From Mobula hypostoma (lineage: Eukaryota), in assembly GCF_963921235.1 (NCBI RefSeq), contig NC_086107.1:99636001-99700000 (forward strand): a stretch of DNA of 64,000 nt, given 5' to 3'. The notes beneath the pieces are model-generated. The model ran no database searches. It worked only from the letters and a program-made list of their open reading frames with translations, and had not been told where the DNA came from. Below, piece by piece: positions 11,271 to 54,700 of this stretch (within the stretch, counting starts at the first letter, position 1; each line of letters begins with the position of its first letter). The translations under genes were made by a program, and so were the position numbers.

Positions 11271-12068
11271 ATGTAAGCGTAAGTGCTACACCTGTCCCTA
11301 CACCTCCTCTCTTGCCACCATTCAGGGCCCCAATCAGTCCTTCCAGGTGAGGCAACACTTCGCTTGTGAGTCTGTCGGGGTCATCTATTGCATCCGGTGC
11401 TCCCGGTGCGGCTTCCTCTACATCGGTGAAACCCGACGCAGATTGGGGGACCGCTTCGTCGAGCAGCTCCACTCCGTCTGCCACAACAGACAGGATCTCC
11501 CAGTAGCCACCCACTTCAACTCTGCTTTCCACTCTCATTCAGATATGTCCATACATGGCCTCCTCTACTGCCATGGTAAGGCTAAACTCAAGTTGGAGGA
11601 GCAACACCTCATATACCGTCTAGGTAGTCTCCAGCCCCTTGGTATGAACATAGAATTCTCCAACTTCCAGTAATTCCCTTCCCCTCCCTTCCCCTATCCC
11701 TATTTCACTCTGCCCCCTCCCCCAGCTGCCTACCACCTCCCTCATGGCTCCACCTCCTTCTACTACCCATTGTGTTTTCCCCTATTCCTTCTTCACCTTT
11801 CCTGCCCATCACCCCCCTGCTTCCCCTCCCCCACCCCTTTATCTTTCCCCTTACTGGTTTTTCACCTGGAACCTACCAGCCTTCTCCTTCCCACCCTCCC
11901 CCCACCTTCTTTATCGGGCCTCTGCCCCTTCCCCCTACAGTCCTGACGAAGGGTTCCGGCCCGAAATGTCGACTGATCGTTTCCACGGATGCTGCCCGGC
12001 CTGCTGAGTTCCTCCAGCGTGTTGTGAGTGTTGCTTTGACCCCGGCATCTGCAGAGTATTTTGTGTTT
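11271..12068 (+). mobile_element. Penelope-like element 3' part (GIY-YIG endonuclease plus terminal repeat with hammerhead motif)
   Basis: VIYCIRCSRCGFLYIGETRRRLGDRFVEQL...GMNIEF is a PLE GIY-YIG domain. Its 3' half is nearly identical to 54030-54525 (-). Confidence 0.85.
11938..11975 (+). ncRNA. Minimal type-I hammerhead ribozyme motif (one stem-III variant)
   Basis: CAGTC-CTGACGA-A-GGG(TTCCGG)CCC-GAAA-TG-TC-GACTG. Confidence 0.55.
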
Positions 12069-12789
12069 GCTGCTGTTGTTTCGTTGTTTGTTCTATTCTG
12101 TGTTGTTCTGCCAAGCATTGTGGGCGTGCTATGTTGGCACCAGAATGTGTGGCAATACTTGCGGGCTGCCCCCAGCGCACCCTTGGGTGTGCTGCTTGTT
12201 AGCACAGATGACACATGTTTTGATGAACGTGTGTTAAATAAATCTGAACAAGATGCTGAAGGAGCTCAGCAGGTCAGGCATACCTCTGAAGAGGAGTCAA
12301 CAGTGATATTTTGCACTGAGACCCTTCACTGGGGCTTCGTTTATCATCCCCTGAGAGACAGAGCCACTGAAGGCAGCTCTTGGCTCAGAGGCAGGAAGCG
12401 GCCGAACGACTTGTATGTCTCCAGTACTCTGGAGGAGGCAGAAAGTGTCGGTCCTCACCACAAAACTGCTACTGCTCACAGGACAATTGGATCCCGTCCA
12501 TAAAGTGTGCAGGGAGAAGTACCCAGCTCGGGGCTCCGAAATGGAGACTTTGTTCATGGAATGCAGGTTGACAGGTGACCAGCTCGGGGCAGACCTGGTC
12601 CAATCACCACTACTGTGAGTTCACAGCACAGACATAGCCTGCCCCTGTAAATTCCAGCTGTCCTCGGTGTCCAGCCCATACCCCTCCACCCTGTTGGATG
12701 ACCAGGTCATTTCCCACAAGTAAATGAATCTCCGGGTTGAACATGGTGACGTATATGTACTTTGATGACAAGCCTACCTTGAACTTTGA

Positions 12790-14853: not shown

Positions 14854-17800
14854 TTACAGGGAGGACCCTCTGGTCTTAGACACTCCCACGATAGGCACCA
14901 TCCTCTCCAAATCCACTCTAGCAAGGCCTTTCACCATTTGATAGGTTTCAATGAGATCCCCGCTCATTCTCCTGAATTCCGGTGAATATAGGCCCAGAGC
15001 CATCAAGCACTCTTCATATGACAAGTTGTTTAATCCTGGAATAATTTTTGTGGACCTCATTTGGACCCTCTCCAATTTCAACACATTCTTTCTTAAATAA
15101 GAAGCCCAAAACGGCTCACAATACTCCAAGTGAGGCCTCACCAGTGCTTTATAAAGCTTCAACACTACATCCTTGCTTTTATGTTCTAGTCCTCCCGAAA
15201 TGAATGCTAATATCACATTTGCCTTCCTCCCCACAGACTCAACCTGCAAATTGTCCTTTAGGAAATCCTGCACAAGAACCCCCAAATCCCTTTGCACCTC
15301 GGGTTTTTTTTCATATCTTCTCTCTATTTGCACAATAGTCAACTCTTTTATTTTTTCAACCAAAGTGCATGACCATACACTTCTCAACACTCTATTCCAT
15401 CTGCCATTTCTTTGCCCATTCTCCTAATGTGTCTGACCTTCTGTAGTCTCTATTTCTTCAAAACTACCTGCCCCTCCACCTAACTTTGTATCATCTACAG
15501 ACTTTGCAACCAAGCCATCAATTGAATCATCCAAATCATTTACAAACAATGTAAAAAGAATTGGTCCCATCATAGACCCCTGCGGAACACCACTAGTCAC
15601 TGGAAGCCGGTTGGAAAAGGCTCTCTTTTTCCCACTCTTTGTCTCCTGCCAATCAGCCACTGCTTTATCCATGTTGGAATCTTTCCTGTGATACCATGGG
15701 CTCGTAGCTTGCTAAACAGCCTCACATGTGTGGCACCTTGTCAAAGGCCTTCTGAAAATCCAAATGCACAACATTCTCCTTTTTCTATCCTGCTTGTTAT
15801 TTCTTCAAAGAATTCCAACAGATTAGTCAGGCAAGATTTTCCCTTGAGGAAACCATGCTCTCTATGGCCTATTTTATCATGCACCTCCAAGTACCCTGAA
15901 ACCACATCCTTAACAATCAACTTCAACATCTTCCCACCCACTGAGCTCAGACTAACTGGCCTATAGTTTCTTTCTTCTGCCTCTCTCCCTTCTTGAAGAG
16001 TGGAGTGACATTTGCAATTTTCCAGTCTTCCGGAACCATTCTAGAATCTAGTGATTCTTGAAAGATCATTACGAACGCCCACATAATCTCATCAGCCACC
16101 TCTTTCAGAACCTGGGGGTGTACACCATCTGGTCCACATGACTTATCTATCTTCAGATCTTTCAGTTTCCCAAGAACCTTCTCCTGAGTTATGGTAACTT
16201 CACACACTTCATGACCCTTGACACCTGGAACTTCCACCATACTGCTAGTGTCTTCCTGAGAGAAGACTGATGCAAAATACTTACTTAGTTCATCTGCTAT
16301 TTCCTTGTCCACCATTACTGCCTCTCCAGCATTGTTTTCCAGCAGTCTGATATCCACTTTCGCCTCTCTTTCACACCTTATGTATCTGAAAAATCTTTTG
16401 CTCTTTAATATTATTGGCTAGTTTACCTTCATATTCCATCTTTACCTTCTTATTGACTTTTTTACTTGCCTTCTGTTGGTATATAAAACCTTCCCAATCC
16501 TCTAACTTCCCTAATTTTTGTCTTTTAGTTAGCCTTGACGAGGGGTCTTGACCGGGAATGTCCATTGTACCTCTTCCTATAGATGCTGCCTGGCCTGCTG
16601 CGTTCACCAGCATTTTTTGAATGTGTTGCACTAATTTTTGTTCTATTTTATGCCCTTTGGCTTTTATGTTGGCTTTGACTTCCCTTGTTAACCATGGCTG
16701 TGTCATCTTGCCTTTAGAATACTTCTTCCTCTTTGAGATACATATATCCTGTGCCTTCCGAATTGCTTCCAGAAATTCCTGCTATTACTGCTTTGCGTCA
16801 TCCCTGCCAGTGTTCTTTTCCAATCAGTTCTAGCCATCTCCTCTGTCATCATACCTCAGTAATTTCCTTTTCTCCACTGTTATACTGACTTTAGTTTCTC
16901 CTTCTCGTATTTCGGGGTGAATTTAATGGTAGTGTGGAGGAGCAGAGGGATCTCGGGGTACATGTCCACAGATCCCTGAAAGTTGCCTCACAGGTAGATA
17001 GGGTAGTTAAGAAAGCTTATGGGGTGTTGGCTTTCATAAGTCGAGGGATAGAGTTTAAGAGTTGTGATGTAATGATACAGCTCTATAAAACTCTGGTTAG
17101 GCCACACCTGGAGTACTGTGTCCAGTTCTGGTCACCTCACTATAGGAAGGATGTGGAAGCATAGGAAAGGGTACAGAGAAGATTTACCAGGATGCTGCCT
17201 GGTTTAGAGAGTATGCATTATGATCAGAGATTAAGGGAGCTTGGGCTTTACTCTTTGGAGAGAAGGAGAATGAGAGGAGACACGATAGAGGTGTACAAGA
17301 TATTAAGAGGAATAGACAGGGTGGATAGCCAGCGCCTCTTCCCCAGGGCACCACTGCTCAATACAAGAGGACATGACTTTAAGGTAAGGAGTGGGAAGTT
17401 CAAGGGGGATATTAGAGGAAGGTTTTTTACTCAGAGAGTGGTTGGTGCGTGGAATGCACTGCCTGAGTCAGTGGTGGAGGCAGATACACTAGTGAAGTTT
17501 AAGAGACTACTAGACAGGTATATGAAGGAATTTAAGGTGGGGGATTATATGGGAGGCAGGGATTGAGGGTCGGCACAACATTGTGGGCCGAAAGGCCTGT
17601 AAAGTGCTGTACTATTCTACAACCATATCTATATTATGATCACTTGCCCCTAAGAATCCTTCTACCTTAAGATCTCTAATCAATCCTGGTTCATTGCACA
17701 ACACCCAGTCCAGAAGAGTTGACCCCTAGCGGGCTCAACCACAAACTGCTCTAAAATGCCATCTCATAGGCACTCTAGAAATTCCCCCACTTGAAATCCA

Positions 17801-18615
17801 GCACCAACCTGATTTTCCCAATCGACCTGCATATTGAAATCCCCCATGACTATTGTAACATTGCCCTTCTGGCGCGCAATTTCTATCTCCTGTTGTAACT
17901 TGTAGAATGCATCCTTACTACTGTTTGGGGGCTCCATCAAGATCTTTTCACCCTGGCAGCTCCTTAGCTCCACAACAATTCAACAGCTTCTGACCTGTGT
18001 CACCTCTTTCTAATGATTTGATTTCATTTCTTACCAACAGAGCTATACAATCTCCTCCACCTACCTGCCTTTCTTTTCGATGAAGTTTGTATCCTTGGAC
18101 ATTAAGCTCCCAGCAATAATCATATTTCAGCCATGATTCAATGATGCCTACAACATCATACCTGCCAATCTGTAACTGCTATGAGTTCATCGAGCTTATT
18201 CTGTATACTGGGCTCATTCAAATCTAACACATTTAGTCCTGTATTCACCCTTTTTGACTCTCTCTGCCTTTTACGTTGCAATTTATCCTGTTGACTGCAG
18301 TTTTGTCCTATCATCAGCTTCTCCTTGCTCGGAATCTCACTACACGTTGCCTCTCTTTGTAAACTGACTCTCTCATCTTCAGCACTATCACCCCCGTTCC
18401 CAGCCCCCTGCCAAATTAGCTTAAACCCACCTGAACAACTCTAGCCAACCAGCTCGCAAGGATATTGGACCCCCTCGGATTTATGTGCAGCTCATCCCTT
18501 TTTTACAGGTCATACCTTCCCTAGAAGAGATCCCAATGATCCGTAAATCTGAACCCCTGCCCTCTGTGCCAGTTTCTCAGCCACGCATTCATCTGATAAA
18601 TCATCCTATTCCTAT
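14854..18615 (-). mobile_element. CR1 LINE (end of ORF1, EN, RT), degenerate, with nested insertions
   Basis: IVMGDFNMQVDW (EN); KSCGPDGVHP, WKIANVTPLFKKG, SCLTNLLEFFE, GVPQGS, DDTKLGG, LYKALVRPHLEYC (RT). Confidence 0.9.
16925..17620 (+). mobile_element. CR1 LINE 3' fragment (different subfamily) nested in the minus-strand CR1
   Basis: QRDLGVHVHRSLK...LYKTLVRPHLEYCVQFWSPHY...FFTQRVVGAWNALP; CR1 3' tail. Confidence 0.88.
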
Positions 18616-18663
18616 GTACAGTATACAGATTTTCTGTAATTCATGTTTTTTCTATTATTATGT

Positions 18664-20822: not shown

Positions 20823-21292
20823 CCCTGGGTCCCCTTCTCTTTTCCTTTCTCCTATGGTCCACTCTCCTCTCCTATCAGACTCTTTCCACCCCAGCCCTTT
20901 ACCTTTCCCACCCATCTGGCTTCACCTACCACCTTCTTGCTATCCTCCTTCCCCTCCCCCCATTTCTGGCATCTTCCCACTTCCTTTCCAGTCGTGAAAG
21001 AGGGTCTCGGCCCAAAACGTCGACTGTTTATTGATTTCCGTAGATGCTGCCTGACCTGCTGAGTCCCTCCAGCATTTTGTGTGTGTAACCCTGAGATTCA
21101 TTTTCTCACGGGCACACTCAGTAAATCCAATAACCATAATACAATTAATGAAAGACCACACCCAACAAGGCAGACAACAAGCATTCCGTTTACTTCTTTT
21201 AATATAGTTGTATTTTGTTATTTTAATTTGTAGTTCAAATTCTACCGGGTTTTTTTTTGTTCCAGTCTCAGAGCGGGCATCTGCATCCTCTA

Positions 21293-22729: not shown

Positions 22730-24400
22730 GGGTGGAAGTTCCAGGAGTCAGAGGGACCATGAAGTGTGTGAAGTTACCATTACTAGGGAGAAGGTTCTTG
22801 GGAAACTGAAAGGTCTGAAGGTAGATAAGTCACCCAGACCAGATGGTGTACACCCCAGGGTTCTGTAACAGGCAGCTGAAGTGATTCTGGAGGCGTTAGT
22901 AATGATCTTTTATGAATCACTAGATTCAGGAATGGTTCTGGAAGATTACAAATGTCACTCCACTCTTCAAGAAGGGAGAGAGGCAGAAGAAAGGAAATTA
23001 TAGGCCAGTTAGTCTAGCCTCAGCGGTTGGGAAGATATTGGAGTCGTTTGTTAAGGATGTGGTCTCAGGGTACTTGGAGGTGCATGATAAAACAGGCCAT
23101 AGTCAGCATGGTTTCTTCAAGGGAAATTCTTGTCTGCTACATCTGTCAGAATTCCTTGAAAAAGTAACAAGCAGGGTAGACAAAGGAGAATCGGTTGATG
23201 TTGTGTACTTGGATTTTCAGACGGCCTTTGACAGGGTGCCACACATGAGGCATTTAGCAAGCTACAAGCCCATGGTATCACAGGAAAGATTCTGGCATGG
23301 ATAAAGCAGTGGCTGATTGGCAGGGGGAAAACAGTGGGAATAAAGGCGGCCTTTTCTGGTTGGCTGCTGGTGACTAGTGGTGTTCCACAGGGGTCTGTGG
23401 TGGAACGGATTCTTTTTGTGTTATATGTCAATGATTTGGATGATAGAATTGATGGCTTTGTTGCAAGGTTTGCAGATGATATGAAGATAGGTGGAGGGGC
23501 AGGTAGTTTTGAGGAAGTAGAGAGGCTACAGAAGGACTTAGTCAGATTAGGAGAATGGGCAAAGAAGTGGCAGATGGAATACAGTGTTGGGAAGAGTATG
23601 GTCATGCACTTTTGTAGAAGAAATGATAGGGTTCACTATTTTTTAAATGGAGAGAAAATACAAAAATCTGAGGCACAAAGGGACTTAGGAGTCCTTATGT
23701 AGGATTCCCTAGAGGTTAATTTGCAGGTTGTGCCTGTGGTAAGGAAGGCAAATGCGATATTAGCATTCACTTCGAGAGGACTAGAATATAAAAGCAAGGA
23801 TGTCATGTTGAGGCTTTATAATGCACTAGTGAAGCCTCACTTGGAGTATTGTGAGCAGTTTTAGGCCCCTTATTTTCGAAAGGATGTGCTGAAACTGGAG
23901 AGGGTTCAAAGGAGGTTCACATAAATGATTCCAGGATTGAATGGCTTGTCACATGAAAAGCGTTTGATGGCTCTGGGCCTGTATTCACTGGAATTCAGAA
24001 GAAAGAGGGGTGAACTCATTGAAACCTATCAAGTGGTGAAAGGCCTTGATAGAGTGGTTGTGGAGAGGATGTTTCCTGCCGTGGGAGGGTCTGAGACCAG
24101 AGGACTCAGCCTCAGAATAGAGGGGCACCATTTTAGAATGGAAATGAGGTGGAATTTCTTTAGCCAGAGAGTGGTGAATCTGTGGGATTCGTTGCCACAG
24201 GCAGCTGTGGAGGCCAAGTCTTTATGTCTATTTAAGGCAGAGGTTGATAGATTCTTGATTGGTCAGGGCACGAAGGGATACGGGGTGAGGGTAGGAGATT
24301 GGGGGCTGGGTGGAAAATTGGATCAACCATGATCAAAAGGCAGAGCAGACTTGACAGGCCCAATGGCCTAATTCTGCTCCTATGTCTTATGGTCTTATGC
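22730..24400 (+). mobile_element. CR1 LINE, 5'-truncated (RT to 3' tail)
   Basis: VDVVYLDFQTAFDRVPH, GVPQGSV, FADDMKIGGG, FFSQRVVNLWDSLP; TCTTATG tail. Confidence 0.9.
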
Positions 24401-31057: not shown

Positions 31058-31650
31058 CAAGATGTGCTTGCTGGTGGGATCCCATTGGAGGTGGCGGAAA
31101 TTTCAAAGAATTGTAGCGGCCACCCGTTTTAATTCCAATTCCCATTCCCATTCTGATATGTCTATCCACTGTTGCGATGAGGCCACACTTAGATTGGAGG
31201 AACAACACCTTATATTCCGTTTGGGTAGCCTTCAACCTGAAGGCATGAACGTTTATTTCTCTAACTTTTAGTAATGTATCCCAAATCCCCTCCTTCACCA
31301 TTTCCCATTCCTTTTTCCCTCTCTCACCTTATCTCCTTGCTCACCCATCACCTTCCTCTGGTGCTCCTACCTCCTTCTCTTTCTTCCATGACCTTCTGTC
31401 TCTTTCACAATCAACTTCCCTGCTCTTTACTTCATCCTTCCCCTCCAGGTTTCATCTATCACCTTGTGTTTATCTCCCCCCTTCCCTCACCTTTTAAATC
31501 TACTCCTCAGCTTTTTTTCTCCAGTCCTACCAAAGGGTTTCAGCCCAAAACTTTGACTGTGCTCTTTTCCATAGATGCTGCCTGGCCTGCTGAGTTCCTC
31601 CAGCATTGTGTTGCTCGGATTTCCAGCATTTGCAGATTTTCTTCTGTTTG
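31058..31650 (+). mobile_element. Short Penelope-like 3' fragment with small inverted 5' piece
   Basis: [41 protein letters not shown]; degenerate hammerhead core at about 31523. Confidence 0.7.
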
Positions 31651-32878: not shown

Positions 32879-34189
32879 GATCCGATCTTTTGACAGTGCT
32901 CACCAGTTTGCGTTCATGAAACTTGTCGAGAAGCCCAGGTTGGAGAGGTGAGCATGTCGTCAACACTGGAATGTTGCGCCCCAGATTGGAAGACGTTGCA
33001 AGTGAAATGCTGCTTCTTCTGGCAGGAGTGTTTGGTTCCCCGATTGCTGGGAAGGGAAAGGGGTGAAGGGACCAGAAGGACACGCGATGCAAATCCCGCA
33101 GTCGCAAGGGGAAGTGCTACAAGGCAGGGAGTGGTTGGTAGAACTGGAAGAGCAGAGTGGGGAACAGCAATGAGATGACTCCGAGTTTTTCCCAATTCCG
33201 ATGCAAGATCATTAACCTGAAACATTAACTCAGCAGGCCAGGCAGATGTATGGAAGAAAGTACAGCCCTGCCAAAAGGTTTTGGCATGTTACGTCGACTG
33301 TACTTTTTCCCATAGATGCTGCCTGGCCCGCTGAGTTCCTCCAGCATTTTGTGTGTGTGTGTGTGTTGCTCGGACTTCCAGCATCTGCAGATTTTCTTGT
33401 GAAACATTAACACTGTGTGTCTTTCTGACCCGCTGAGCATTTTCAGTATTTTCTTCTGTCTGCAGAGGGACTCCTCCCCAGTTGCTCTGCAGCTGAAAAA
33501 CTGATGTTTGTTCAATTGTTAATCAGGATCCTTCTGCAAATATTCCCAATTAACAGTCAGAGTTAAGCCCAAACTCTCTCCTCCTCTTCGGTCCTGTGGG
33601 AGAGTGCTGTCTGCGGCCTGTGCTGGAGTTCTAGTGACCTTGGCCATAGATGTTGGAGGCAGCCAGGTTCACAGAACCCCTTCTGCTGATTTAAGTTAGC
33701 TGCTGATGGAAATATGAAATATAAACTGAAAAAAAACTTTCAGCATCCACAACTCAGGCAGCACCTGTGGGGAGAGAAGTAGTTTTACTTATCCTTGGAA
33801 CATGGAGAAGTCTGAAAATACAGTCTGTATTTAGTCGTAGAGAAGTTTTTGGAGTGGGGACAAGGGGAGATGTGTGTGACAGAGCAGGAGCAAACAGGTC
33901 TGAATGTCACAAGGGGTGAAGGAGAGAGTAGACACGCCAACCAGCACTCTGCTTCCACAGATATCTGAGCTGCTGAGTTCTTTCAGCATTCTACGCATTG
34001 CTCTGGAGTTCCGGCCGCTGCAGAATCTCTTATGCTTAAGATCCAGCAGTTTGTAATTTGCTTTTAAAAAAAATACTTCATTTATTTTGGAAAAAGAATG
34101 CATGGAAAATTTGCACATCGCTTCCCAATCCTGACAGATCACGTGTTGGAGAACGGCACCCTTCGGGGTCTTCCCCCAAAATGCGTCTA

Positions 34190-34358: not shown

Positions 34359-34537
34359 GTTAGTCCCGCAGGGCCCGGCTTTTGATCTGGCGTCTGGGGC
34401 GCTTTCACGGTCCCTTTCCGTCCCGGGCCAGAGCTGTACAGCAAAATCACAGGTTGGGTGTTAAGGAACGCTCCCCCCCTTCAAATTACACACATGAAAA
34501 ACGCAGCAGGCCAGGCAGCATCTCTAGGAAGAGGTAC

Positions 34538-34573
34538 AGTCGACGTTTCAGGCCGAGACCCTTCGTCAGGACT
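34538..34573 (-). ncRNA. Minimal type-I hammerhead ribozyme motif (intact core)
   Basis: Minus strand: AGTC-CTGACGA-A-GGG(TCTCGG)CCT-GAAA-CG-TC-GACT. Confidence 0.6.
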
Positions 34574-37041
34574 AACTGAAGGAAGAGCTAGTAAGAGATT
34601 TGAAAGTGGGAGTGGGAGGGGGAGATCTGAAATGATAGGAGAAGACGGGGGGGGGGGGAATGGAGCCAAGAGCTGGACAGGTGATTGACAAAAGGGATAT
34701 GAGATGATCATGGGACAGGAGGCCTAGGGAGAAGGAAAAGGGGGAGGGGGGAACCCAGAGGATGGGCAAGGGGTATGGTCAGAGGGACAGAGGGAGAAAA
34801 AAGAGTGAGTGAGTAAATAAATAAGGGATGGGGTACGAGGGGGAGCTGGGGCATTAGCGGAAGTTAGAGAAGTCGATGTTCATGCCATCAGGTTGGAGGC
34901 TACCCAGACGGAATATAAGGTGTTGTTCCTCCAACCTGAGTGTGGCTTCATCTTTACAGTAGAGGAGGCCATGGATAGACATATCGGAATGGGAATGGGA
35001 CGTGGAGTTAAAATGTGTGGCCACTGGGAGATCCTGCTTTCTCTGGCGGGCAGAGCGTAGGTGTTCAGCGGAACGATCTCCCAGTCTGCATCGGGTCTCG
35101 CCAATATATAGAAGGCTGTATTGGGAGCACCGGACGCAGTATATCACCCCAGACGACTCACAGGTGAAGTGTCGCCTCACCTGGAAGGACTGTCTGGGGC
35201 CCTGAATGGTGGTGAGGGAGGAAGTGTAAGGGCATGTGTAGCACTTGTTCCGCTTACAAGGATTAATGCCGGAGGGAGATCGATGGGAAAGAATGGGGGG
35301 GACGAATGGACAAGGGAGTTGTGTAGGGATCGATCCCTGCAGAAAGCAGAAGGCGGGGAGGGAAAGATGTGCATAGTAGTGGGATCCTGTTGGAGGTGAC
35401 GAAAGTTACGGAGATTTATATGTTGGCCCAGAGGCTGGTGGGGTGGAGTTCCCCTCTACCACCACTCTCCTCCGTCTAGTGGAATTAGTCCTTACTCTTA
35501 ATAATTTCTCCTTTGGCTGCTCCCACTTCCTCCAAACTAAAGGTGTAGCTATGCGCACCCGTATGGGTCCCAGCTATGCCTGCCTTTTTGTTGGCTTTGT
35601 GGAACAATCTATGTTCCAAACCTATTCTGGTATCTGTCCCCCACTTTTCCTTCGCTATATCGACAACTGCATTGGTGCTGCTTCCTGTACGCATGCTGAG
35701 CTCATTGACTTCATTAACTTTGCCTCCAACTTTCACCTTGCCCTCAAATTTACTTGGTCCATTTCCAACTCCTCCCTCCCCTTTCTTGATCTTTCTGTCT
35801 CTATCTCTGGAGACAGCTTATCTACTGATGTCTATTATAAGCCTACAGACGCTCACAGCTACCTGGACTATTCCTCTTCCCACCCTGTCTCTTGCAAAAA
35901 TGCCATCCCCTTCTCGCAATTCCTCCGTCTCCGCCGCATCTGCTCTCAGGATGAGGCTTTTCATTCCAGGACAAAGGAGATGTCCTCGTTTTTTAGAGAA
36001 AGGGGCTTCCCTTCCTCCACCATCAACTCTGCTCTCAAACGCATCTCTCCCATTTCACGCAGATCTGCTGTCACCCAATCCTCCTGCCACCCCACTAGGA
36101 ATAGGTTTCGCCTTGTCCTCACCTACCACCCCACCAGCCTCCGGGTCCAACATATGATTCTCTGTAACTTCCGCCACCTCCAACCGGATCCCACCACGAA
36201 GCACATCTTTCCCTCCCCCCCTTCTGCTTTCTGCAAGGATTGCTCCCTACGTGACTCCCTTGTCCATTCGCTTCCCCCCCATCCCTCCTCACTGATCTCC
36301 CTCCCGGCACTTACCCTTGTAAGCGGAACAAGTGCTACACATGCCCTTACACTTCCTCCCTCACTACCATTCAAGGCCCCAGACAGTCCTTCCAGGTGAG
36401 GCGACACTTCACCTGTGAGTCGTCTGGGGTGATAAACTGTGTCCGGCGCTCCCGATGCGGCCTCTATATATTGGCAAGACCTGACGCAGGCTGGGAGACC
36501 GTTTCGCTGAACGCCTATGCTCTGTCCGCCAGAGAAAGCAGGATCTCCCAGTGGCCACACATTTTAATTCCACGTCCCATTCCCATTCTGGTATGTCTAT
36601 TCACAGCCTCCTGTACTGTCAAGATGAAGCCACACTCGGGTTGGAGGAACAACACCTTATATTCCATCTGGGTAGCCTCCAACTTGACGGCATGAACATT
36701 AACTTCTCTAACTTCCATTAATGCCGCACCTCCCCTTCGTACCTCATCCCTTATTTATTTATTTATTTATTTATTTATCCATCCATCCATCCATCCATCC
36801 CTCTATCCCTCTATCTGTCTGTCCCTCTCACTATAACTCCTTGCCCATCCTCTGGGCTCCCCTCCCCTTTCTTTCTCTCTAGGCCTCCCATCCCATGATC
36901 CTCTCCCTTCTCCAGCCTCGTATCCCTTTTGCCAATCAACTTTAGAGCTCTTAGCTCCATCCCTCCCCCTCCTGTCTTCTCCTATCATTTTCAGATCTCC
37001 CCCTCCCACTTTCAAATCTCTTTCTACGTCTTCTTTCAGTT

Positions 37042-37077
37042 AGTCCTGACGAAGGGTCTCGGCCCGAAACGTGGACT
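37042..37077 (+). ncRNA. Hammerhead motif with GUC>GUG cleavage-site change
   Basis: AGTC-CTGACGA-A-GGG(TCTCGG)CCC-GAAA-CG-TG-GACT. Confidence 0.45.
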
Positions 37078-39713
37078 GTACCTCTTCCTATAGATGCTGC
37101 CTGGCCTGCTGCGTTCACCAGCATGTTTTATGTGTGTTGCTTGAATTTCCAGCATCTGCGGATTTCCTCGTGTTTGCCCCCTTCGAATTAACTGACTTCC
37201 CTTTCACTTCTGAGGGACGGTCGTTAACCTGAAATGCACAGTGCTCCTCCGTCATGCAGATGCTGTCTGACTTACTACTCTCTGTAACACACGCAAAACG
37301 CTGTAGGAACTCAGCGGGTCTGGCAGCATCTATGGGGAAAAAAGTACAGTTGATGTTTCAGGCCGAGACCCTTCGGCCAGTCCTGCGGAATGGTTATGGC
37401 CCAAAACGTTGACTGTACTTCCCCCCCATAGATGCTTCCTGGCCTGCTGAGTTCCTCCAGCATTTTGTGTGTGTTGCTCGGATTTCCAGCATCTGCAGAT
37501 TTTCTCTTGTTTTATGACTTCACTCTCTGTACTTAATTCTGGATTTGTGGCATCTGCAGGTTTTTCATTTGAGTTGCTGTTAAGTGACTCATACTCCCTT
37601 CCCTCCCTCAGTTTGTGCCTCAAGTACTGCAGCACTCCTCCTTCGTTATGCCTTCGCTAAGGTGCTGAGTGCCCAGCAGATAACTATGGGGAAGAGTTTA
37701 TTAATGAGAATGAATAAGCAGCAGTGTGGATCAAAGGGGCAGTATAGTGAAGAGGCAAATGAAAATGAACACAGGAGAGGAAAATTTTGTCTCTTTTTGT
37801 GCATGGGGGTGGGGGGAGTTAATGTCTTTCAACAACTCCCATGGTCTTTTCTGTATTTCCTGGCTATCTGGAGAAGACAAGTATCAGAGTTGTATTGTAC
37901 ACACATACTTTGACAATAAAATGAACCTTTGATAGTGGTGGAAAATAAAGGGGATGTCAGAATAAGAATCAGTTTTATTATCACTGATACATATCGTGAA
38001 ATTTGTTTTCTGTCTGTACAAGACATTGAAAGTTGCAAACAATTAATGATAACAATAAACAATAAATGATCTAAAGGAGGAATAGTGAGGTTGTGTGCAT
38101 GGGTTCATGAAGTCTGACAGCAGAGGGGAAGAAACTGTTCCTGTACCCCCTCCCTGACAATAGGAATGAAAAGGGAGCACGTCCCAGATGGTAATGACAG
38201 ATGCCACCTTCTTCAGACATTGACTTTGAGGATATCCTCGATGGGGATGTGGTGGGGGGTGGGGTGCTCAGGGTTGTGTCCATGATGGAACTGCCTGAGT
38301 AGACAGAAAGTGAATCAGAGTTAAGGAAAAAAAAATGGTAAAATGTCAAAGATAATAAAGACCATTTGTCTGAATGCTTTTGTAAAGAAAGAGATGATTT
38401 GCGGTCTCATCGTCGGTTCTGATTAAGGGTCCTTAATCTTAACTCTTCACTATTTCTCTTCACACAGATGTTGCCTGACTTGCCAAGAAATTCCAGCAAT
38501 TTGTATGTTTAGGTTAGAAGTGTAAAGAAGTTTGGGTGGTATTGTTAACAAGGAAGGTCTGGGAAGGTTTAGAGGGATATGGGACAAACGTGTTCAAATG
38601 GAACTGACTCTGGTAGAGTCATAGAAAGGTACAACTCAGAAGCAGGCCCTTTGGCCCATCTAGTCCATGCTGAGCTATTTAAACTGCCTGCTCCCATCGA
38701 CTTGCACTGGCACCATCCATGTACCAATCCAACAGACAATGCGGTCAGTACGGATATTGGGCTGAAGATCCATGTTGCATAAGCATGGTGATGAGTAGCG
38801 ACACGATGGCAGTGAATCGTGATTGGAGATCGTTCGCTGTTAATAAGGAATAGAAGGCCTAAGAAGATGGGTGGAATTGCTCTACAGACATGAAATGTTG
38901 CCTTTCCAAATGGAAATGGAGAGCTATTAAAGGTGTGTAGTAGGGAAACTCCAATTAGCATGGCTGATTTTATTCTGAACATTGGATGAATCAAACTCGC
39001 GGTGGATACTTGGAAGAGAAATTTGTGGAATTGTTTCTTCATGCAATATGCTGTAGAGCCCACGCAGAAGCAGGATGTTTTAGGTTTGGTCGTATATAAT
39101 AAGGTATGATTAAATAGACCTTGTAATCAAGGAGTCTGCTCGGCAGGTCAAGCAGCGTTTATGGGAGGAAAAGAATTGTCAACGTTTTGGGTTGAAACCA
39201 ATGAAATCATGACCCCAAACGTCAACAGTTCCTTTCCCCTCAGTGATGTTGCTCAGCCTGCTGAGTTCCTCCGGCAGATCATTCATTGCTCCAGATTCCA
39301 GCATCTTCGTTGTAATCGAAGACCCTGTGAAGAGTGGCGATCACAACATGATGGAGCTCAAAGATTCAGAGTTCGTTTATTATCAAAGTATGTTTGCAGT
39401 ATAGAACCCTGAAATTCGTCTTCCTGACAGGCAGTCATGAAACAAAGTAGAACCAACCTGATCAAAGAACTACTCCCCCCCCATGCAAAAAAAGTGTAAA
39501 CGGCAACAAAAAAAGAGCAAAATCACAGAATATAAGACATAAAAGATACAGTTCAAGGGTGAAAATCCCAAAGGTAGCAGAGTTGGGAATTAGGGAATGG
39601 TTAATGTATTGTGACTTCTTAATATAGTTCACAAGCATACAAGTGGAATGAAATTAAGATTTTTTTCCTATAGTTTATTGATGTTTGCATCTTTTTTCTA
39701 TAAATAGGCTTAC

Positions 39714-45700: not shown

Positions 45701-48700
45701 CTTAAGATCCGAAAAATCAATGAAACCTTTAGATCGAGCGAATCGAAACAGTCTCTCCTTGTCTTGAAAATAATGAAAACGTAAAATAACATGCCTAGGT
45801 CTATCTGACCTAGACGAGTATGATGGGATTCTGTGAACACGATCCAGAAGCGGTGGTTGGTCAGGAAATACAGTAGGGAATGCATCTTTTAAAAGTTGAG
45901 AGAAATATTTCATGGGGTTGTTGGCTTCAACGGCTTCCCTCACGCCGATCATTCGTAAATTCTGCCGTCGCATTCTAGATTCCAAGTCAGAGTTTTTAAA
46001 AGTCAAAAAGTCCAGTTTCTTCTTCATTACATTAATTGTTTCTTCGATTTTCCCCATCTTAAGCTCACTTTGTTGCGCGAATTTTTGAAGATCAGATATA
46101 GCCGACTGATGTTCTGCAATAAATGTTTGCATCTTATCAATTAAATCGGCAATTTTCTGGAAATTAGTTGAGATTTCCGTATGAATCAGGTCTTTAACAG
46201 AGCCTGCAATTTCCGTACAAATCATCTCCCTAACAGAGGTTGAAATTTCCCTCTGAATTAACTCCGATATCGCTTTCAAAGTCACCGGTGATTCAGTCAG
46301 GGGGAGATCCGTAGCTTTCGGTTTAACCGGAGGTTTACCATCCTTGCCGTTTTTCCCGTTCTTAGACATAGCAGATCTAACCCCGTATCATCCAATTGTC
46401 AGAGAATTCAGTTTAATTCAAAGTATTATAAAAATTGATGCCTTAATGGTTAATTAAAGTATAGCTGACCATAGAGAAAAAAAACTCAGAGGTAATGGAG
46501 CGAGTCAAGAACGCGACTTCACTCCATGAGCGCTACCGGAAGTCTCCTAGATGATCATTACTTTTATAATCAGCATTGAAGTGGAACATTGAACTCCAGT
46601 GTGACGAGGTGATAATTCAGATACTCAGAGGTTTGGTGGGACCCCATTTGGAAGAACTGTTTGCTTTCAGATACCACAGCTCGGAAAGTGTGTATCTGCC
46701 TTTGACAGGTGCAGTGCTGATTTAACAGAACGATTTGAGAGGAAAAATGTTAAGTCATGATGGCAAGTTATAGAGACAAGGTTTGTGTTCCGTGCCAATG
46801 TGTAATGGATTTTGCCCTCAAGATTTGTATCTTTAATCTCAATTGTTGTTCCTCTCCGTGCCTTGTGGCGCACCGGGTGCCAACCTTGCCACTTCTTAAA
46901 CATTTTTGTCCTTTTTTTTTGGTCTTTTTTCTTATGTAGCCCCCCTGGCCACCCTCAGGGTCGCTCGGCTCGCTGTCGTCTAGGGAAACAGCCTCAGCCC
47001 CGCTAAACTGGGTAATTCGTTTGTGTGGATGCTGTGTGAGGTACCCCACCCCGCCCAAATAACAGACAATACACCAGATGCAATTAAATGATTTACAGTT
47101 TATAGATATTACTGGAACTATATAATTAATAGAGAATAAAATATAAAAGGAAAATAAAAGGCACCACACTTATCAAAGTTCAATCTCTTCGTGCACAGAC
47201 AGTTGGAGCTCGGTACACTTCTTCTTCACCCTGCCACCCCTCGGACCACCTCGACCGGCCGCCTGGGACCAACAACGGTGGTCAACCAGAGGCTCCACAC
47301 GAGTCCGTCTCCGTCTCCTCGCCGAACGCCCTCCTTGGGGTCCGACCCCGTTAGCAGACATCACAGCACCTGGTCCATTCTCTGTCTCTCTCTCCCACCT
47401 TCTGCCCCAAAACCCCGCGCATACAGTATCTTACAGATACACCAAAAACATAACAACTATCCCCATTGGTTCATAACACCTTCTTATCAGCAATGTGATT
47501 CAACAAACTGCTAGCGGGAGGGCTTTCTCAGCATTTAACATAACAAAGAAGCATTCCCAAGTATAACATAACAAAGAAGCCATTTTAATTAGCCTAGGCA
47601 GTAACATAAGAGACAAAACCCCCTTACACTTACAAGGCTAAGTTGACAGCTGAACGCTCAATGGCACGGATGAAAAGCACGCAAGGAGCTGGCCGGATTC
47701 TAACCTGGGACCACTTGCCTCAAAGTCCAAAGCTGATTGCTCTATGCCGGCCGTCCTAACCTCACTATTGGTTCTAGTAAATCTGTCAATGCATTCAGTA
47801 GAGAATTCAATAGGGACTTGGTGTGAAGCCTTTTTTTTCAGCAATCTAAGGACCATAACCTCAAAACCTGCTGAATTTGACTTGGTAAATATTATCTGGA
47901 CAAGGTAGGAATCTGAGGCCACATATGCTGTGGAACAGCAGAATGCCAGCTGCTGAGGTGATGAATTTTACTTCATCTGGAAGGTGCCAAAGGAGTATAA
48001 AAAATCCTACTTGAAATTAAATTGCACAAGAAGTGACCAAACAGCTTGTCATGGCCATACCAACTCTGGAAGAGCTGTTCAGTTAATCATAACTGTTACC
48101 CCTTTCCTTTGCAATTGCCTATTCAATCTCTGCTAGAAGCTGCAACTCAAAATATTTTTCATCTCCTTTTTTGCAGTGCGTTCCAGACCATAACACATTT
48201 TTTAAAAAAAATCTCTTCCTTCTGGTTCTTTTCTCCATCTATGAGTTACAGATGCTGCAGCCAAGGGAAAGCAATTCTCCTTATTAACTCTCTGCTCAGC
48301 ATTGTAATTTTGAATGACTCCTGTAAAATTCCTCTCCTCCAGCAAGAGCAATTCCAGCTCTGGTCTTATTCATAATAACAGAAGCTCACCCCAGTCTCAT
48401 TCCCGTTAATCTCCCATAGTATTCTCAACGCAAAACATCTGCCTGGTCAGTAAGTTGTAAAGAGTTAACATGATTTACCAATTTTTGTATTCTTGACTTG
48501 TGCAAAATTTATTAGCTTGAAATGTTAACTCTTTCCTCTCTTCACAGATGCTACCTGATTTGTTTTGCCTCCGAATGCGGCTATTGTTTGGTTCACCCTG
48601 GGCTACCAGCTTTGTCTGACACAGAGGTGACGCCCACTAACTCCTCTTTCCCCTTTCAGATTTTTATTACATGGTGCCGGACTTTCCAGGGCATGGGGTC

Positions 48701-51700
48701 TCGTCACACCTTCCTCCTGGTGTAATGTACCAGGTACCGGTATACGTATTAGCTGTGCGGAGAGTAACAGAGAGTAAGTTTCACTTCTGTGATTGGGGAA
48801 ACAACAAGTTGGCGGCAACAAATGGTCTCAAACTTCCCAAGCCTGTGAAATTTAAGAGCTATCAAACCCACAGTTGCTTCCCATCCTTCATCCGCATCAG
48901 AATGGAATTTCTTTTGATATTTAATCCAGTAAAGTCGTAGTTTAAAACAAAGAATGAGAGTCAGGGTTATTGTCACTGACATAAGTCATAAAATTTGTTG
49001 TTTTGTGGTAGCAGTACAGTACAGGCATAACAAATCACTCGAGTTATAGTAGTACTGCCAAAGGATTGCCATTTAGTGTTCATGAGTTCATGGACCATTC
49101 AGAAATCTGATAGCAGAGGGGCATTAACTATTACTTCCTTCCTAGCGTGTCGCACCAGACAGTCAGCCATTCTTGTCTGGCGCGTGGTGTCGGGATTGGT
49201 CTCCTTTCGGATTAACCGAGTCACGATATGAACGTTCCTGACTCGACCCTTGTTTTTTATGAGACCGAGTGGCTAGCTCGACGCTCAGCCCGGCACGGAT
49301 GGAAAGCGAGCTCGGGGGGTGGCCGGTCTTGGATTCGAACTTGGGAGCCTTCACTCCAAAGTCCGGCGCTGATGCCGCTGCACCACCCGCCAGCCAACTG
49401 TTACTAAACATTGACTGTGGGTCTTCAGGCTCATGTCCCTCCTCCCTGATGCTAGCAGTAAGAAGGGGACGTGTCATAAGTGGTAAAGGTCCTTTATGAT
49501 GGATGCAGCCTTCTTGAGACACCACTCTTTGAAGGTGTCCGTAATGCGAGGGAGGCTTGTGCCCCTAATGGAGCTGATTGAGTCTGCAACCCTGTGGAGT
49601 CTTTTGCGATCTTGTGCAAAGGCACCTCCATACCAGACAGTGACGTAACCAATCAGAATGCTCTCCATGGTACGTCTGTAGAAGTGTCTTCAAATTCCTA
49701 ATGACTATAGCCGCTGTGGAGCCTTCATTATGATTGCACCATGAAGCCCAGGAACTTGAAACTGCTCACCCTTTCCACTCCTACTCCCCTCAATAAGGAT
49801 TAATGCATGTTGTCCCAACTTCCCCTTCCAGAAGTCTACAGTCAATTCTTTGGTCTTGCTGACATTGAATGCAAGGTTGATATTGGAGTATAGATATTTG
49901 ATCATTTTACTGCAGAAAAAGTGTTTGCTTTGATCATCCAACCCATCCAGTTATCTCTATCAATGTAACACACACAAAATGCTGGAGGAACTCAGTAGGT
50001 CAGACAGCATCTATGGAAAAAAGTACAGTTAACGTTTTGGGCTTGACCCTTTTATTGTTATTTTTTTCCTCCAGTCCTACTGAAGGGTCTTGGCCTGAAA
50101 TGTCGACTGTACTCTTTTCCTCAGTTCTTCCAGCATTTTGTGTGCGTTGCTCAAGTCGTTCCATTAAGTCTTGTCAAACATTCTTGTTATGTAGGTACTT
50201 CTTGCTGTCATAAGAATCCAGCATTTTCTGTGTGTTCCTTGGATTACCAGCATCTGCAGAATTTCTTTTGTCAGTTTTCCCTATCCCTCATTCGTTGCAC
50301 TCCTCCCTGCCTATGGCTGTCCCACGTATCTACCCACCCACACCTCTCCTCGTTCTCTGTGTTCCTTTCACCCACGCTTCTCCATTTTATTTCTCTGTTA
50401 TTCTTTGGCTGGGGTAAGAGGCTGTGATTTCATCATGAGGTTGGGTTGGAATAGACTGTTTTCTGCTTTACCGCCAGGAGGTTCCAATACAATAGAGTCA
50501 TAGGAAAAAGCCACACAGAAATTGAATTTGTGGCAACCATCAATCACTCATTTACATGAATCCTATACTAACACACACAAAATGCTGGAAGAACTCAGCA
50601 GGTAAGACAGCACCTATGGAGAGAAATAAGGAGTTGACGTCATAAGGAATGGACAAGGGAATCGAGAAGAAAGCGATCCCTGTGAAAAGCAGAGTGGGGG
50701 CAGGGCGATAAAGTTTGTTTGGTGGTAGGATCCCATTGAAGACGGCAGAAGCTGTGGGGAATGACGTGTTGATGTGTGAGAAATTGACCGAGTTAAGTGC
50801 AGGGTGGAAGTTAGAGGCATAGTTGATGAAATTGATGAGCTCAGCATGGGTGCACAAGGCAGCACCAATGCAGTCAGCAATGTAGTGTAGAAAAAGTTGG
50901 GGAGCATTACCAGTGAAGGTTTGGAGCGTGGACTGTTCTACGTAGCCCACAAAAAGTCAGGCATAGTTGGGGCCCATGCTATTGCCCATGGCTAGACTTT
51001 GGGGTTGTAGAAAGTGGGAGCAGCCAAAAGAGAAATTGTTGAGAGCGGGGACCAGTACTGCCTGACAAAGGAGGATGGTGGTGGAGGGGAACTGGTCAGG
51101 TCTGTTGTTGAAAAAGAAGTGGAGAGCTTTAAGGCCTCTTTGATGGTAGGGTAGAAGTTTTAGGGATTGGACATCCATAGTGAAAATGAGGCTATCAGTG
51201 TCAGTGTCAACTGAAAGTTCTTGAAGAAATCGAGAGCACGTGAAGTGTCACGGATGTAGGTAGGAAGGGACTGAAACAAGGGGGACAAGGTAAAAGGACG
51301 TGAGTTCAGTGGGGCAGGAGCAGTGGGCCTACCCAGACAGTCAGGTTTTGTGGATCTTGTGGAGGAGGTGGAAACGAACAGTGCAAGGTAAGAGAATTGA
51401 GGTTGGTGGCAGTGGATGGGAGATCTCTAAAGTTGAGGAGGTTGGTGATGCAGGAGACAATGGGCTAATATTCCTGAATGTGATCCCATTCAAGGGGTAA
51501 GTATGAGGAAGTGTCTTGAGGGTTGCTGCCTGGCCTCAGCAAGCAGAGGTAGAATCCTATACTAATCTGAGGTTGAATCCTAGGTTAATCCCGTTTGTAT
51601 TCTTCCTGAAGTTTCCATCAACCTCCCCTAGATCCTGCTACTCTTTACACATGAGGGACCATAAACAGTGCTCAATCAGTCTACAACCCTTCATGTCTTT

Positions 51701-54700
51701 AGGATGAGAGAAGAAACCAGAGCACTCGGAGGAAACTTGCGCAGTCACAGGGAGGAAATACAGAGTCCGCACAGACACACTGGAGGTCAGGATCAAACCT
51801 GGGTCTCTGGTGCTGTGAGCGTTGCATTTCTGAGAACAAGAAGAGTGTAGGTGGAGAAGGAATCCCTATTCCCGATGCCCACCATGGGTATGAGGGTGAG
51901 TGTGGGGCCTGCTGATGGTCACTGCGAGATTGTTCAAAGATGTTGAGTGGTGTCCAAGAAGTCTGGTTTCCTATTCATATGTGATTAATTGTCAGGCCTG
52001 TCTATCATTGACCACGCTGGTTTACCAGAACAGTGTATGTAGAAGTTTCATCTTGCAGCGAGTGCTCCCATTCACAGTTAAACCTGAGAAACAGGTTTGT
52101 TCATTATGTGCACTGTCGGATGACATTGGCCATCATGGTCTTTCCATGACCACGATTGTCAATGGCATATTTTTCTACAGAAGTAGTTTGCCATTGCTGC
52201 CTTCTGGGCAGTGTCCTCAAGACAAGTGACCCTGACCATTACCTATGCTCTTCAGAGATTATCTGCCTGTAACCAGGGCCTGTGATGTGCACCAGCTGCT
52301 CATATGACCATTCCCACCTGCTCCCATGGCTTCATGTGACCCTGATTGGGGGTGGGGCGGGGCTAAGAGGGGCTCCACCTTGGCCAAGGGTGACCTGCAG
52401 GCTAGCGGAGGGACGGGGTGCCTTCCACTTCCTTTGGTAGAGATGTTTCCCCACCCTGCCCACCCCCCACTTTTGAGAATCTTGACAGGAACAAAATCCT
52501 GTGTTCAGCAGGTTTGAGAATCCCCAGCATTTTCTGCTCTTGCTTCATGTTTCCAGCTTCTCCGGTTGCGTGGTTGGTTTGAGACAGCATGTGGTTGGGT
52601 GTGGGGTTGATCTGTGCTCCCTGGTAGTGTCACTGATCTCAGAGCATATAGGTTGGTAATCAGCAAGTGGACACTGGATTTGGACAACGATACGTTTGAA
52701 TGAAGTGCTGGGTGAAGCTTGTCCATTTTGATAAGATTGTGGAAGATGACAAGAACTGTGCATCGGGGTAAAACAAAACAGGAAGTGCTGGAAATGAATG
52801 GCGGGCTAGAGATGCACCCTCCTCTGAAGGAGGTATAAGGGTGCTCCTTTCCCTCCGCTAGCCTGCAAGTCACCCTTGGGCAAGGTGTGGCACCCCCAAT
52901 CAGGGTCGTGTGAAGCCATGAAAGTAGATGGTAGATGGTCTTAAGAGTAGCTGGTGCACATCACAAGTCCTGGTTATGTGAGCATGGACATCAGGCAGAG
53001 AACCTCTGAACAGTATTGATGATGGCTGGGGTCACCCGTCTTGTAAAGTCACCGCCCAGAAGAAGGCAATAGCAAGCCACTTCTGTAGAAAAATTTTCCA
53101 AGAACAATCATGGTCATGACACCATGATCGCCTATGTCAAACAACATGGCACATAATGGTGATGATCTGGAAATATTCAGCAGGTCAGGTAGCAACTATG
53201 AGCAGAGAACCATACTCGACTATTAATCAGTTCCCATTCTTATTGGTGGGGCCATCTACCCAGTAACCTAGAGTAAACAGACCTGCAATTGTATTACCTT
53301 TTCATTAATTTTGGTAGTGCTAGGTGTTTTACAGTTATTGTGCATCTGCAATTGGTTTTCTTTCTTCAAGCATGTTGAAGAGATATTGTTGGGTGATTCA
53401 GAACACTTGGTTTTAGAGAGGAACTTTAGCACACAGAAGATCTTCCTGACATTGCTGTCTTCATTATTGTAGGCGACGCGGATGGAACACGGAACACGGC
53501 ACTGTGGTCTCACCCTTCAGTTAAATATTCTGCACAATTGAGCACTGACATTCACTCATCAAATTCACTGAAAAGAATTCTAATTTGCCGTCCTTGGGTT
53601 TTTCCCCTGTCAGCATCTGCAGAAGAGGCTGAAAACTGAGGAGAAATAATTTTTTTAAAAGTTGGCTGAGAAGTTAGAAGTTTTGACCACTATTTATTGA
53701 AGGTGGGAGGGTGAAAGTTTAAAATGCTAAAGGAACTCAGACAGCAGCTATGGAGGGAAATTTGGTCTTGGCTGAGTTTGGAGGTACAGCACAGTGATGA
53801 GCCGTTCCAGCCAACAAGCCCACATTGCCCAGTTACCCCCCTGTGACCTGATCAATTAACCCACGCAGCTTTGGAATGTGGGAGGAAACTGGAGCAAGCC
53901 AGTGTGATCACAAAGTGAGTGTACAGAGTCCTTACAGACAGTGACAGAATAGGATTCTGGTTGCTGGTGCTGTAACAGCGTTACACTAAACCCTACGCTA
54001 CCATGCCAGAAATGAGAAGTCATTGTTTCGGGTCAAAGCAACACCCACAACACGCTGGAGGAACTCAGCAGGCCGGGCAGCATCCGTGGAAACGATCAGT
54101 CGACGTTTCGGGCCAGAACCCTTCGTCAGGACTGTAGAGGGAAGGGGCAGAGGCCCTATAAAGAAGGTGGGGGGAGGGTGGGAAGGAGAAGGCTGGTAGG
54201 TTCCAGGTGAAAAACCAGTAAGGGGAAAGATAAAGGGGTGGGGGAGGGGAAGCAGGGAGGTGGTGGGCAGGAAAGGTGAAGAAGGAATGGGGAAAACACA
54301 ATGGGTAGTAGAAGGAGGCGGAACCATGAGGGAGGTGATAGGCAGCTGGAGGAGGGGGCAGAGTGACATAGGGATAGGGGAAGGGAGGGGGAGGGAATTA
54401 CCGGAAGTTGGAGAATTCTATGTTCATACCAAGGGGCTGGAGACTACCTAGACGGTATATGAGGTGTTGCTCCTCCAACCTGAATTTAGCCTCATCATGG
54501 CAGTAGAGGAGGCCATGTATGGACACAAAGAGTTTTGGAAGGTTTGGAATGCACTGCTGAGGAAAGTGCTCAGATAAGATAGCAACACTTAGACACACAT
54601 AACCAGGCAGGGATCTTGTACAGGTTGATGGGGTTAGTTTAGATTGACATAGCTGGTGCAGATATCGTGGACTGAATGGCCTGTTCCTACACTTTACTGT

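Follow-up and report, generated by a model that had tools for sequence, protein, structure and literature searches.

The 64,000-nucleotide (nt) stretch of the Mobula hypostoma genome analysed here (NCBI RefSeq assembly GCF_963921235.1, contig NC_086107.1, positions 99,636,001 to 99,700,000; hereafter the window, in whose own numbering coordinates are given unless a locus is named) carries many dispersed copies of a 38-base motif. This recurring motif is an already described kind of element, and it had been called correctly in a first-pass annotation made from the letters alone. It is best explained as a minimal type-I hammerhead in the pseudo-long terminal repeat (pseudo-LTR, pLTR) of a very abundant family of Penelope-like retrotransposons (PLEs) with a linker of Neptune/Nematis type, for which dimeric cleavage is adopted from the literature; this explanation was given a probability of about 0.7. 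The descriptor and pattern matches, the position of the motif in the pLTRs of a full-length unit and its conservation above the flanking sequence are set out below, together with the readings in which the motif no longer cleaves, belongs to a different kind of element or is a chance likeness.

The hammerhead motif in the window and in the genome

The motif was searched with the short pattern CTGACGAAGGG-N6-CCCGAAACGTC (28 nt), window copies were collected by BLAST with two long copies and by alignment to a reference copy, and structure was assessed with a descriptor comprising a stem I no shorter than 4 bp, CUGANGA, a bulge that may be absent, a stem II of 3 bp or more, GAAA, a spacer with palindromic sequence and a UH cut site. 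The pattern matched four places at no more than one mismatch, namely 54102-54129(-) without mismatch and 11943-11970(+), 34542-34569(-) and 37046-37073(+) with one each, at a chance expectation of 0.00 (100 shuffles). The census by BLAST and alignment gave 16 motif places, three of which are mere remnants with at least 18 differences. All coordinates named in the first-pass annotation were recovered in this way, including its decayed copies, to which 39193-39228(+), 50026-50079(-) and the three remnants had to be added. Two of the 16 copies were intact by the descriptor, which gave no match on the reversed window and none on 50 simulated Markov-1 windows. The copies are as follows, with the 5-bp stem I strands included in the coordinates.

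54097..54134, minus strand: intact minimal type-I hammerhead of the C11.1 type, found by descriptor and pattern
54134-54130 with 54101-54097: stem I of this copy, CAGTC with GACTG
54129-54123, 54122 and 54109-54106: core of this copy, CTGACGA, unpaired A and GAAA
Stem II of this copy: GGGT/GCCC, loop TCTG
54102/54101: predicted cut of this copy, between C17 (54102) and G1.1 (54101)
34537..34574, minus strand: hammerhead of the dominant genomic variant (U11.1, G10.1-U11.1 wobble), passing the descriptor
11939..11975, plus strand: hammerhead copy with C15.2 changed to T (GAAATGTC), stem III palindrome lost
37041..37078, plus strand: hammerhead copy with C17 changed to G (GTG), without a cleavable triplet
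16530..16567, plus strand: decayed copy, 10 differences from the reference motif
20987..21026, plus strand: decayed copy, 6 differences
31520..31559, plus strand: decayed copy, 9 differences
33263..33300, plus strand: decayed copy, 10 differences
37347..37415: two decayed copies lying head to head as a tight pair, 37347-37382(-) and 37378-37415(+), which meet at the motif's 5' edge
39193..39228, plus strand: heavily decayed remnant, 15 differences
50026..50109: tight pair in head-to-head orientation, 50026-50079(-) (10 differences) and 50073-50109(+) (4 differences)

The CUGANGA and GAAA cores, stems I and II, the GUC triplet and a vestigial, palindromic ACGT stem III, all proposed in the earlier annotation, were borne out by the descriptor. 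The unpaired A between A9 and G10.1 is kept in all well-preserved copies, and ACGT stands directly between GAAA and C17, forming a loop-less palindrome at 15.2-16.2, so that a stem III could be shared by two motifs. The two copies described as intact, at 34538 and 54097, both pass the descriptor, but the former has CCT instead of CCC before GAAA, corresponding to the G10.1-U11.1 wobble. The single changes reported at 37042 and 11938 were found as single mismatches, and their nature could be added: the first removes the cleavable GUC and the second breaks the ACGT palindrome. In older window copies, it is chiefly the motif's CpG pairs that have decayed.

Across the genome, the 28-nt pattern gave 91,220 matches at no more than one mismatch, and the reversed-pattern control gave none. 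Letter-perfect 35-nt motifs numbered 51,376, of which 9,513 carry C11.1 and close stem II by a G10.1-C11.1 pair and 41,863 carry U11.1 and close it by G-U. An unselected sample of 204 kb, made up of the window and 14 arbitrary 10-kb stretches, contained 36 terminus copies (about 1 per 5.7 kb), which by rough extrapolation corresponds to about 600,000 genome-wide. The proposal that a ribozyme-bearing unit is one of the commonest short repeats is supported by about one copy per 5-6 kb in the random sample and by the 91,220 matches. For orientation, 4,000 and 9,000 motifs were termed remarkable in PMC4209133, and retrozyme copy numbers reach at most 14,255 in the available text of preprint 10.64898/2026.07.22.740005.

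The Penelope-like carrier element

The best-preserved copies continue upstream into remnants of a retrotransposon, listed here with their extents.

34440..35440, minus strand: 5'-truncated PLE 3' part with endonuclease open reading frame (ORF) remnant, C-rich untranslated region of about 290 nt, hammerhead, conserved 19-nt block and 3' end
36132..37142, plus strand: 5'-truncated PLE 3' part, inverted relative to 34440-35440, with the 5' ends facing
11272..12042, plus strand: 5'-truncated PLE 3' part of a second subfamily, with ORF 11125-11673 (faint GIY-YIG match, E 0.0096)
54030..54525, minus strand: 5'-truncated PLE 3' part of the subfamily of 11272-12042 (95-97% alike)

These four best window copies represent two subfamilies that are only about 65% alike upstream of the motif, whereas the motif and a 19-nt block (GATGCTGCCYGGCCTGCTG, 17 nt beyond) are nearly identical between them. 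Window copies have a common 3' boundary about 70-100 nt past the cut site and differ in their 5' starts; a shared 3' end with variable 5' ends is the signature of 5'-truncated retrotransposition, and all window copies are 3' ends of dead, 5'-truncated insertions belonging to a single PLE family. GIY-YIG was matched by the endonuclease ORF remnant at 34854-35405(-) at E 7.3e-4 with 20.2 bits, below the Pfam cut-off of 22.6, and this remnant had 226,838 first-look candidates in the genome (3.48 Gb).

More complete copies were found elsewhere. At locus L025, reverse transcriptase (RT) and GIY-YIG ORFs and the motif are colinear, and the endonuclease ORF scored 22.9 bits, above the Pfam cut-off. 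Locus L041 holds a full-length unit with an ORF at 1399-4524 (1,042 amino acids, aa), in which RVT_1 (residues 533-697, 23.9 bits, cut-off 29.6) and GIY-YIG (residues 945-1019, 17.8 bits, cut-off 22.6) were both matched below their cut-offs; atlas neighbours carry HTH_animal, DUF8422, RVT_1 and GIY-YIG (score 0.98). The predicted combination of RT and C-terminal GIY-YIG in a single ORF supports an endonuclease-positive (EN+) PLE architecture. The unit lies between direct repeats of 366 nt (1076-1441 and 4598-4956, 97.3% alike), both of which contain the motif, with the cut site 60 nt upstream of the first in-frame ATG. The repeat extends 42 nt into the ORF, and this overlap corresponds to the tail that PLEs are known to have. 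At no fewer than 9 of 150 scored places the frame stays open for exactly 1,043 codons, by which the family looks young, and full-length copies of the U11.1 family, for example L041, keep open 1,042-aa ORFs.

Just before GIY-YIG the linker reads C-KRNK-C-YT-C (CX4CX2C). According to the available part of PMC8557442, an extra Zn-finger-like CX2-5CxxC linker motif marks Neptune/Nematis as opposed to Penelope/Poseidon elements, and the linker therefore suggests a putative PLE of Neptune/Nematis type rather than Penelope proper. The same part of that source describes PLEs as having pseudo-LTRs and a short tail, as often truncated at the 5' end and as accompanied by inverted, likewise 5'-truncated partners; pseudo-LTRs, tail, 5' truncation and inverted partners were all found in L041 and the window copies taken together. 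The designation as Penelope termini accordingly stands as far as a PLE terminal repeat is concerned, and it needs correcting in two respects, as the linker is of Neptune/Nematis type and the window copies are 3' ends only and do not represent both termini.

Two candidate assignments were rejected. The ATG in GATGCTGCC was considered as ORF start, but its frame stops after 11-16 codons in window copies, and the long ORF of L041 starts 40 nt beyond this ATG. The RT ORF at 55763-57061(-) was considered as part of the copy 54030-54525, but similarity to other copies ends at 54525; its frame is open over 432 aa and matches RVT_1 (E 1.6e-10), and it is separate from the neighbouring PLE copy.

Copies are frequently arranged head to head (-,+) with the 3' ends outward. 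This orientation was seen in 10 of the 14 pairs less than 2.5 kb apart among the first 100 matches listed (binomial p 3e-4) and in 4 of the 5 close pairs among the listed matches of the 28-nt pattern. The window contains three such pairs, including the wide pair formed by 37041-37078(+) and 34537-34574(-). Examined head-to-head junctions (20 junctions, loci L042-L061, contig C1) show microhomology of GAC or GACT to the inverted partner; it recurs since the stem I 5' strand, when reverse-complemented, equals the 3' strand of that stem. Head-to-head pairs fit the protein of PAc, the Poseidon element of Anolis carolinensis, which cuts and extends both target strands (PMC11167929, available text), and they fit the inverted partners that PMC8557442, as far as its text is available, describes for PLEs generally.

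Two further arrangements were observed. At L025:3472-7768 and L026:2789-6681, several 5'-truncated PLE copies of unequal length lie adjacent or nested in the same orientation as partial tandems. At L056 (C1:61736876-61737000), an odd micro-rearrangement places two post-cut segments (GACTGTACC...GATGCTGCCTGG) in direct orientation, 31 nt apart, beside an inverted fragment.

Many copies measure only about 90-200 nt, and vertebrate retrozymes are related to PLE pLTRs in the available text of preprint 10.64898/2026.07.22.740005, so that the repeat might be an independent short non-autonomous element, a short interspersed nuclear element or a retrozyme of non-LTR type, instead of a PLE terminus. 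This is very unlikely: longer copies continue unbroken into endonuclease and RT coding sequence, the 5' ends are variable and the 3' end is fixed, no head-to-tail arrays of a fixed unit were present in the 340 kb examined, and the same-strand copies at L025 and L026 are unequal in length.

For the hammerhead-bearing PLE terminus, the following course is proposed by analogy with described elements. If both target strands prime reverse transcription, head-to-head pairs are expected. In RNA transcribed from tandem or full-length units, a pair of motifs could join through the ACGU palindrome and form a shared stem III; the paired motifs would then cleave after GUC, slowly and probably with the help of the element's protein, and cleavage would trim the RNA upstream of the ORF. 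Inserted copies hold the whole motif, and their templates were hence uncut RNA; cleavage is probably not needed for insertion.

Conservation, folding and activity of the motif

Conservation was calculated as the share of copies with the majority letter in non-CpG columns. From 90 aligned rows, 68 were kept after removal of the motif-fetched loci (L001-L008, L026), the reference L041 and rows with an alignment score below 60; the 36 random copies were evaluated separately. Hammerhead columns had a mean conservation of 0.853 in the 68 copies and 0.819 in the random copies, compared with 0.764 and 0.720 for the upstream, linker and tail columns (p 1e-4 and 7e-4, respectively). Because copies are non-independent events, p-values on such counts overstate the evidence. 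The earlier annotation had looked to excess conservation or covariation across genomic copies, and the conservation above the flanks was found, in contrast to compensatory covariation, which was absent from stems I and II among the copies of this genome, where the stems are almost invariant. Covariation supporting the fold is present across species in the 40-species alignment as printed in PMC4209133, with whose consensus (CUGANGAH, G..C, GAAA, palindrome, UH) the motif agrees letter for letter.

The most conserved stretch lies beside the hammerhead.

54066..54084, minus strand: block GATGCTGCCCGGCCTGCTG, 17 nt past the cut site, most conserved stretch of the terminus across subfamilies

This 19-nt block reached 0.898 in the 68 copies and 0.871 in the 36 random copies, and is a candidate RT-binding or initiation region. 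It also has the highest contig depth in the contigs of four organisms (four assembled-contig runs, for which the label RNA is presumptive). These carry the same terminus, and their best-supported differences within the motif fall only in the loop (73 further differences not shown). Thousands of such contigs cover only 54030-54525 of the window, with loose ends that join the 3' half of the motif to other linkers.

The direction of CpG decay was examined by comparing C-to-T with G-to-A counts at three CpGs of the motif (N7/G8, stem III and the stem II loop), the loop CpG serving as control.

CpG N7/G8, U11.1 background: C to T 3,481, G to A 2,046, ratio 1.70
CpG N7/G8, C11.1 background: C to T 2,110, G to A 1,178, ratio 1.79
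CpG of the stem II loop (control): C to T 1,795, G to A 2,337, ratio 0.77
CpG of stem III (15.2/16.2): C to T 2,568, G to A 2,869, ratio 0.90

At N7/G8, the change harmless to the hammerhead (C-to-T at N7) outnumbers the inactivating G8-to-A change. At stem III, no asymmetry was seen in the same counts (0.90, near the 0.77 of the loop control). The test gives weak and mixed backing to constraint on the hammerhead.

The missing asymmetry at stem III belongs to a series of results that weigh against the preferred explanation, as do the non-independence of copies and the lack of covariation described above. Stem changes are one-sided only, from C-G to U-G in stem I and from G-C to G-U at 10.1-11.1, and the 19-nt block exceeds the hammerhead in conservation. 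The predicted minimum free energy (MFE) structure of the monomer is a rod in which G5-G8 pair with C15.2-C17 (-15.6 and -12.2 kcal/mol), and the designed double hammerhead, at -22.1 and -12.7, is much less stable than the MFE structures of the dimer, at -36.1 and -32.7. Such folding, unfavourable without being decisive, agrees with the low in vitro activity and the protein dependence reported for relatives (PMC4209133; PMC11167929, available text). Rfam searches returned no hammerhead family on the whole window (gathering thresholds; E up to 10) and no family of any kind at E up to 10 on a 111-nt stretch that includes the intact copy. That no Rfam hammerhead matches is expected for a motif without a stem III hairpin; the motif nevertheless lacks the support of an independent model. 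For PAc, the available text of PMC11167929 reports that hammerhead mutants left insertion unaffected and that no RNA-seq ends were found at the cut site.

The lack of an Rfam match is also the only point in favour of a hammerhead likeness arisen by chance inside an ordinary repeat. Such a coincidence has a next to negligible probability, since all descriptor features occur together, the controls gave no matches and the motif occupies the position in PLE pLTRs that has been published (PMC4209133).

The chief competing explanation holds that the motif descends from a hammerhead but no longer acts as a ribozyme here; it would be retained either within a structured 3'/5' terminal RNA, as a rod beside the candidate RT-binding block, or as a passenger. 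This alternative is kept alive by the dominance of the G-U variant, as 41,863 of the 51,376 perfect motifs belong to the subfamily with G10.1-U11.1. The inactive rod preferred by the predicted folds, the higher conservation of the adjoining block, the symmetric stem III CpG and the dispensability of the hammerhead for PAc insertion all speak for it, and the available part of PMC8557442 adds that hammerhead-less PLE clades proliferate well and that hammerheads may parasitise PLEs. Nevertheless, this loss of function is considered unlikely, though by far less so than the two alternatives above: the core is preserved letter for letter in subfamilies with flanking sequence that is only about 65% alike, N7 varies and G8 variants were not amplified, nearest-neighbour folding ignores the tertiary core and the help of a protein, and G-U at 10.1-11.1 is also printed for PLE hammerheads of other species, namely cichlids, Xenopus, Latimeria and Lottia (PMC4209133). 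A narrower claim concerns the U11.1 hammerhead, whose subfamily drove the largest amplification and whose monomer is predicted to form a rod hiding core and cut site alike: this variant would have no catalytic activity, or a greatly weakened one, even when dimeric and assisted by protein. The claim is doubtful to a similar or slightly greater degree.

A pile-up of copy ends at the cut site was considered as a footprint of cleavage and was not counted as evidence, because it is confounded by junction microhomology. Whether copies begin at G1.1 was tested with a purine in place of C17, which gave 1,065 matches, 707 of them without the upstream motif; the same test gave 397 matches (223 without the upstream motif) one base upstream and 930 (451) one base downstream. 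Inspection of 20 loci from among the earliest matches of this kind on contig C1 covered 21 breakpoints, of which about 5 were decayed or point-mutated motifs, and most of the others were head-to-head junctions sharing GAC/GACT with the inverted partner.

Under the preferred explanation, a hammerhead in the pLTR of an abundant PLE family, the genome is an unusually large and young natural data set, with tens of thousands of near-identical motifs, C/U variants at position 11.1, full-length elements with open ORFs, and a cut site, 19-nt block, start codon and tail whose relative positions are clear. In the literature covered, the role of PLE hammerheads is termed unclear and their in vitro activity low, and in the sole reconstituted PLE system the hammerhead is dispensable for insertion, according to the available text of PMC11167929. 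The family would be a convenient system for asking whether cleavage matters to PLE propagation. If the U11.1 form is indeed inactive or greatly weakened, a PLE would have amplified to tens of thousands of copies with no functional ribozyme, which would point to a hammerhead that is a passenger or plays a structural, non-cleaving part beside the more conserved 19-nt block. The annotation value is ordinary: one of the commonest repeats of the window is explained as truncated PLE ends.

Other features of the window were recorded separately.

11 to about 5000: tandem satellite made of over 230 copies of a 20-nt unit, most of them 90-94% alike, C-rich on the plus strand (GC skew -0.40 to -0.24)
40991-46387, minus strand: long interspersed nuclear element (LINE) of L1 type in an AT-rich stretch (GC 0.34-0.40)
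45488-46387: ORF1 of this LINE, with a Transposase_22 RBD match
42783-44909 and 40991-42832: ORF2 of this LINE, split over two frames, with Exo_endo_phos and the first half of RVT_1 in the former and the second half of RVT_1 and zf-RVT in the latter
14867-16213 and 22758-24103: long inverted repeat made up of several blocks with 81-86% complementarity, its arms separated by about 7-8 kb
17723-18614 and 25398-26300: pieces related to this inverted repeat

Comparison with known hammerhead systems

The minimal hammerheads of PLEs (Cervera and de la Pena 2014, PMC4209133) resemble the motif in being of type I and located in pLTRs, with CUGANGA followed by one unpaired base, G10.1 pairing with 11.1, a palindromic 15.2-16.2 (C-G) without a stem III loop, a UH cut site and a stem I of 4-5 bp. 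They are likewise dispersed, mostly as single copies, with some close pairs on opposite strands. In contrast to that description, stem II comprises just 4 bp here (GGGU/GCCC), whereas longer helices were stressed there; the copy number lies far above the 4,000 and 9,000 reported; and the motif is almost invariant within this genome, whereas high variability was reported. The 40 species of PMC4209133 include no cartilaginous fish and no obvious match to this genome, with 0 matches for Callorhinchus. Searching the literature collection for the literal motif sequence yielded nothing but unrelated primers.

Among the printed sequences compared, the closest is the hammerhead of a Neptune-type PLE of Acropora digitifera in PMC4209133 (CUGACGAA GGGC-loop-GCUC ... 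CGUC), whose stem II likewise has 4 bp. Its carrier is a Neptune element, and a linker of Neptune/Nematis type is present in the ORF described here. The letters of stem I and of the loop differ and the host is a coral.

PAc, as described in the available text of PMC11167929, has its hammerhead at the junction of pLTR and ORF, as is the case here. Its reverse transcription starts inside the RNA and leaves a tail, which is also present in the ray element, and its cutting and extension of both target strands fits the head-to-head pairs. The PAc ORF, however, starts within the hammerhead and the cut falls 26 nt after the start codon, whereas here it is predicted 60 nt before the first in-frame ATG. 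PAc is of the Poseidon clade, and its protein-assisted cleavage was shown at the bench, whereas for the present element cleavage is a proposal.

The hammerhead families of Rfam have the catalytic core letters found here, with the difference that the motif has no stem III hairpin. A weak or absent, palindromic stem III and the need for two motifs are shared with dimeric hammerheads of type I from newt, Schistosoma and axolotl, where they belong to tandem repeats and to retrozymes of non-LTR type. Those hammerheads occur in head-to-tail arrays of short units and make loop-loop contacts between stems I and II, whereas the motif described here has an open stem I and sits at the dispersed termini of an autonomous element.

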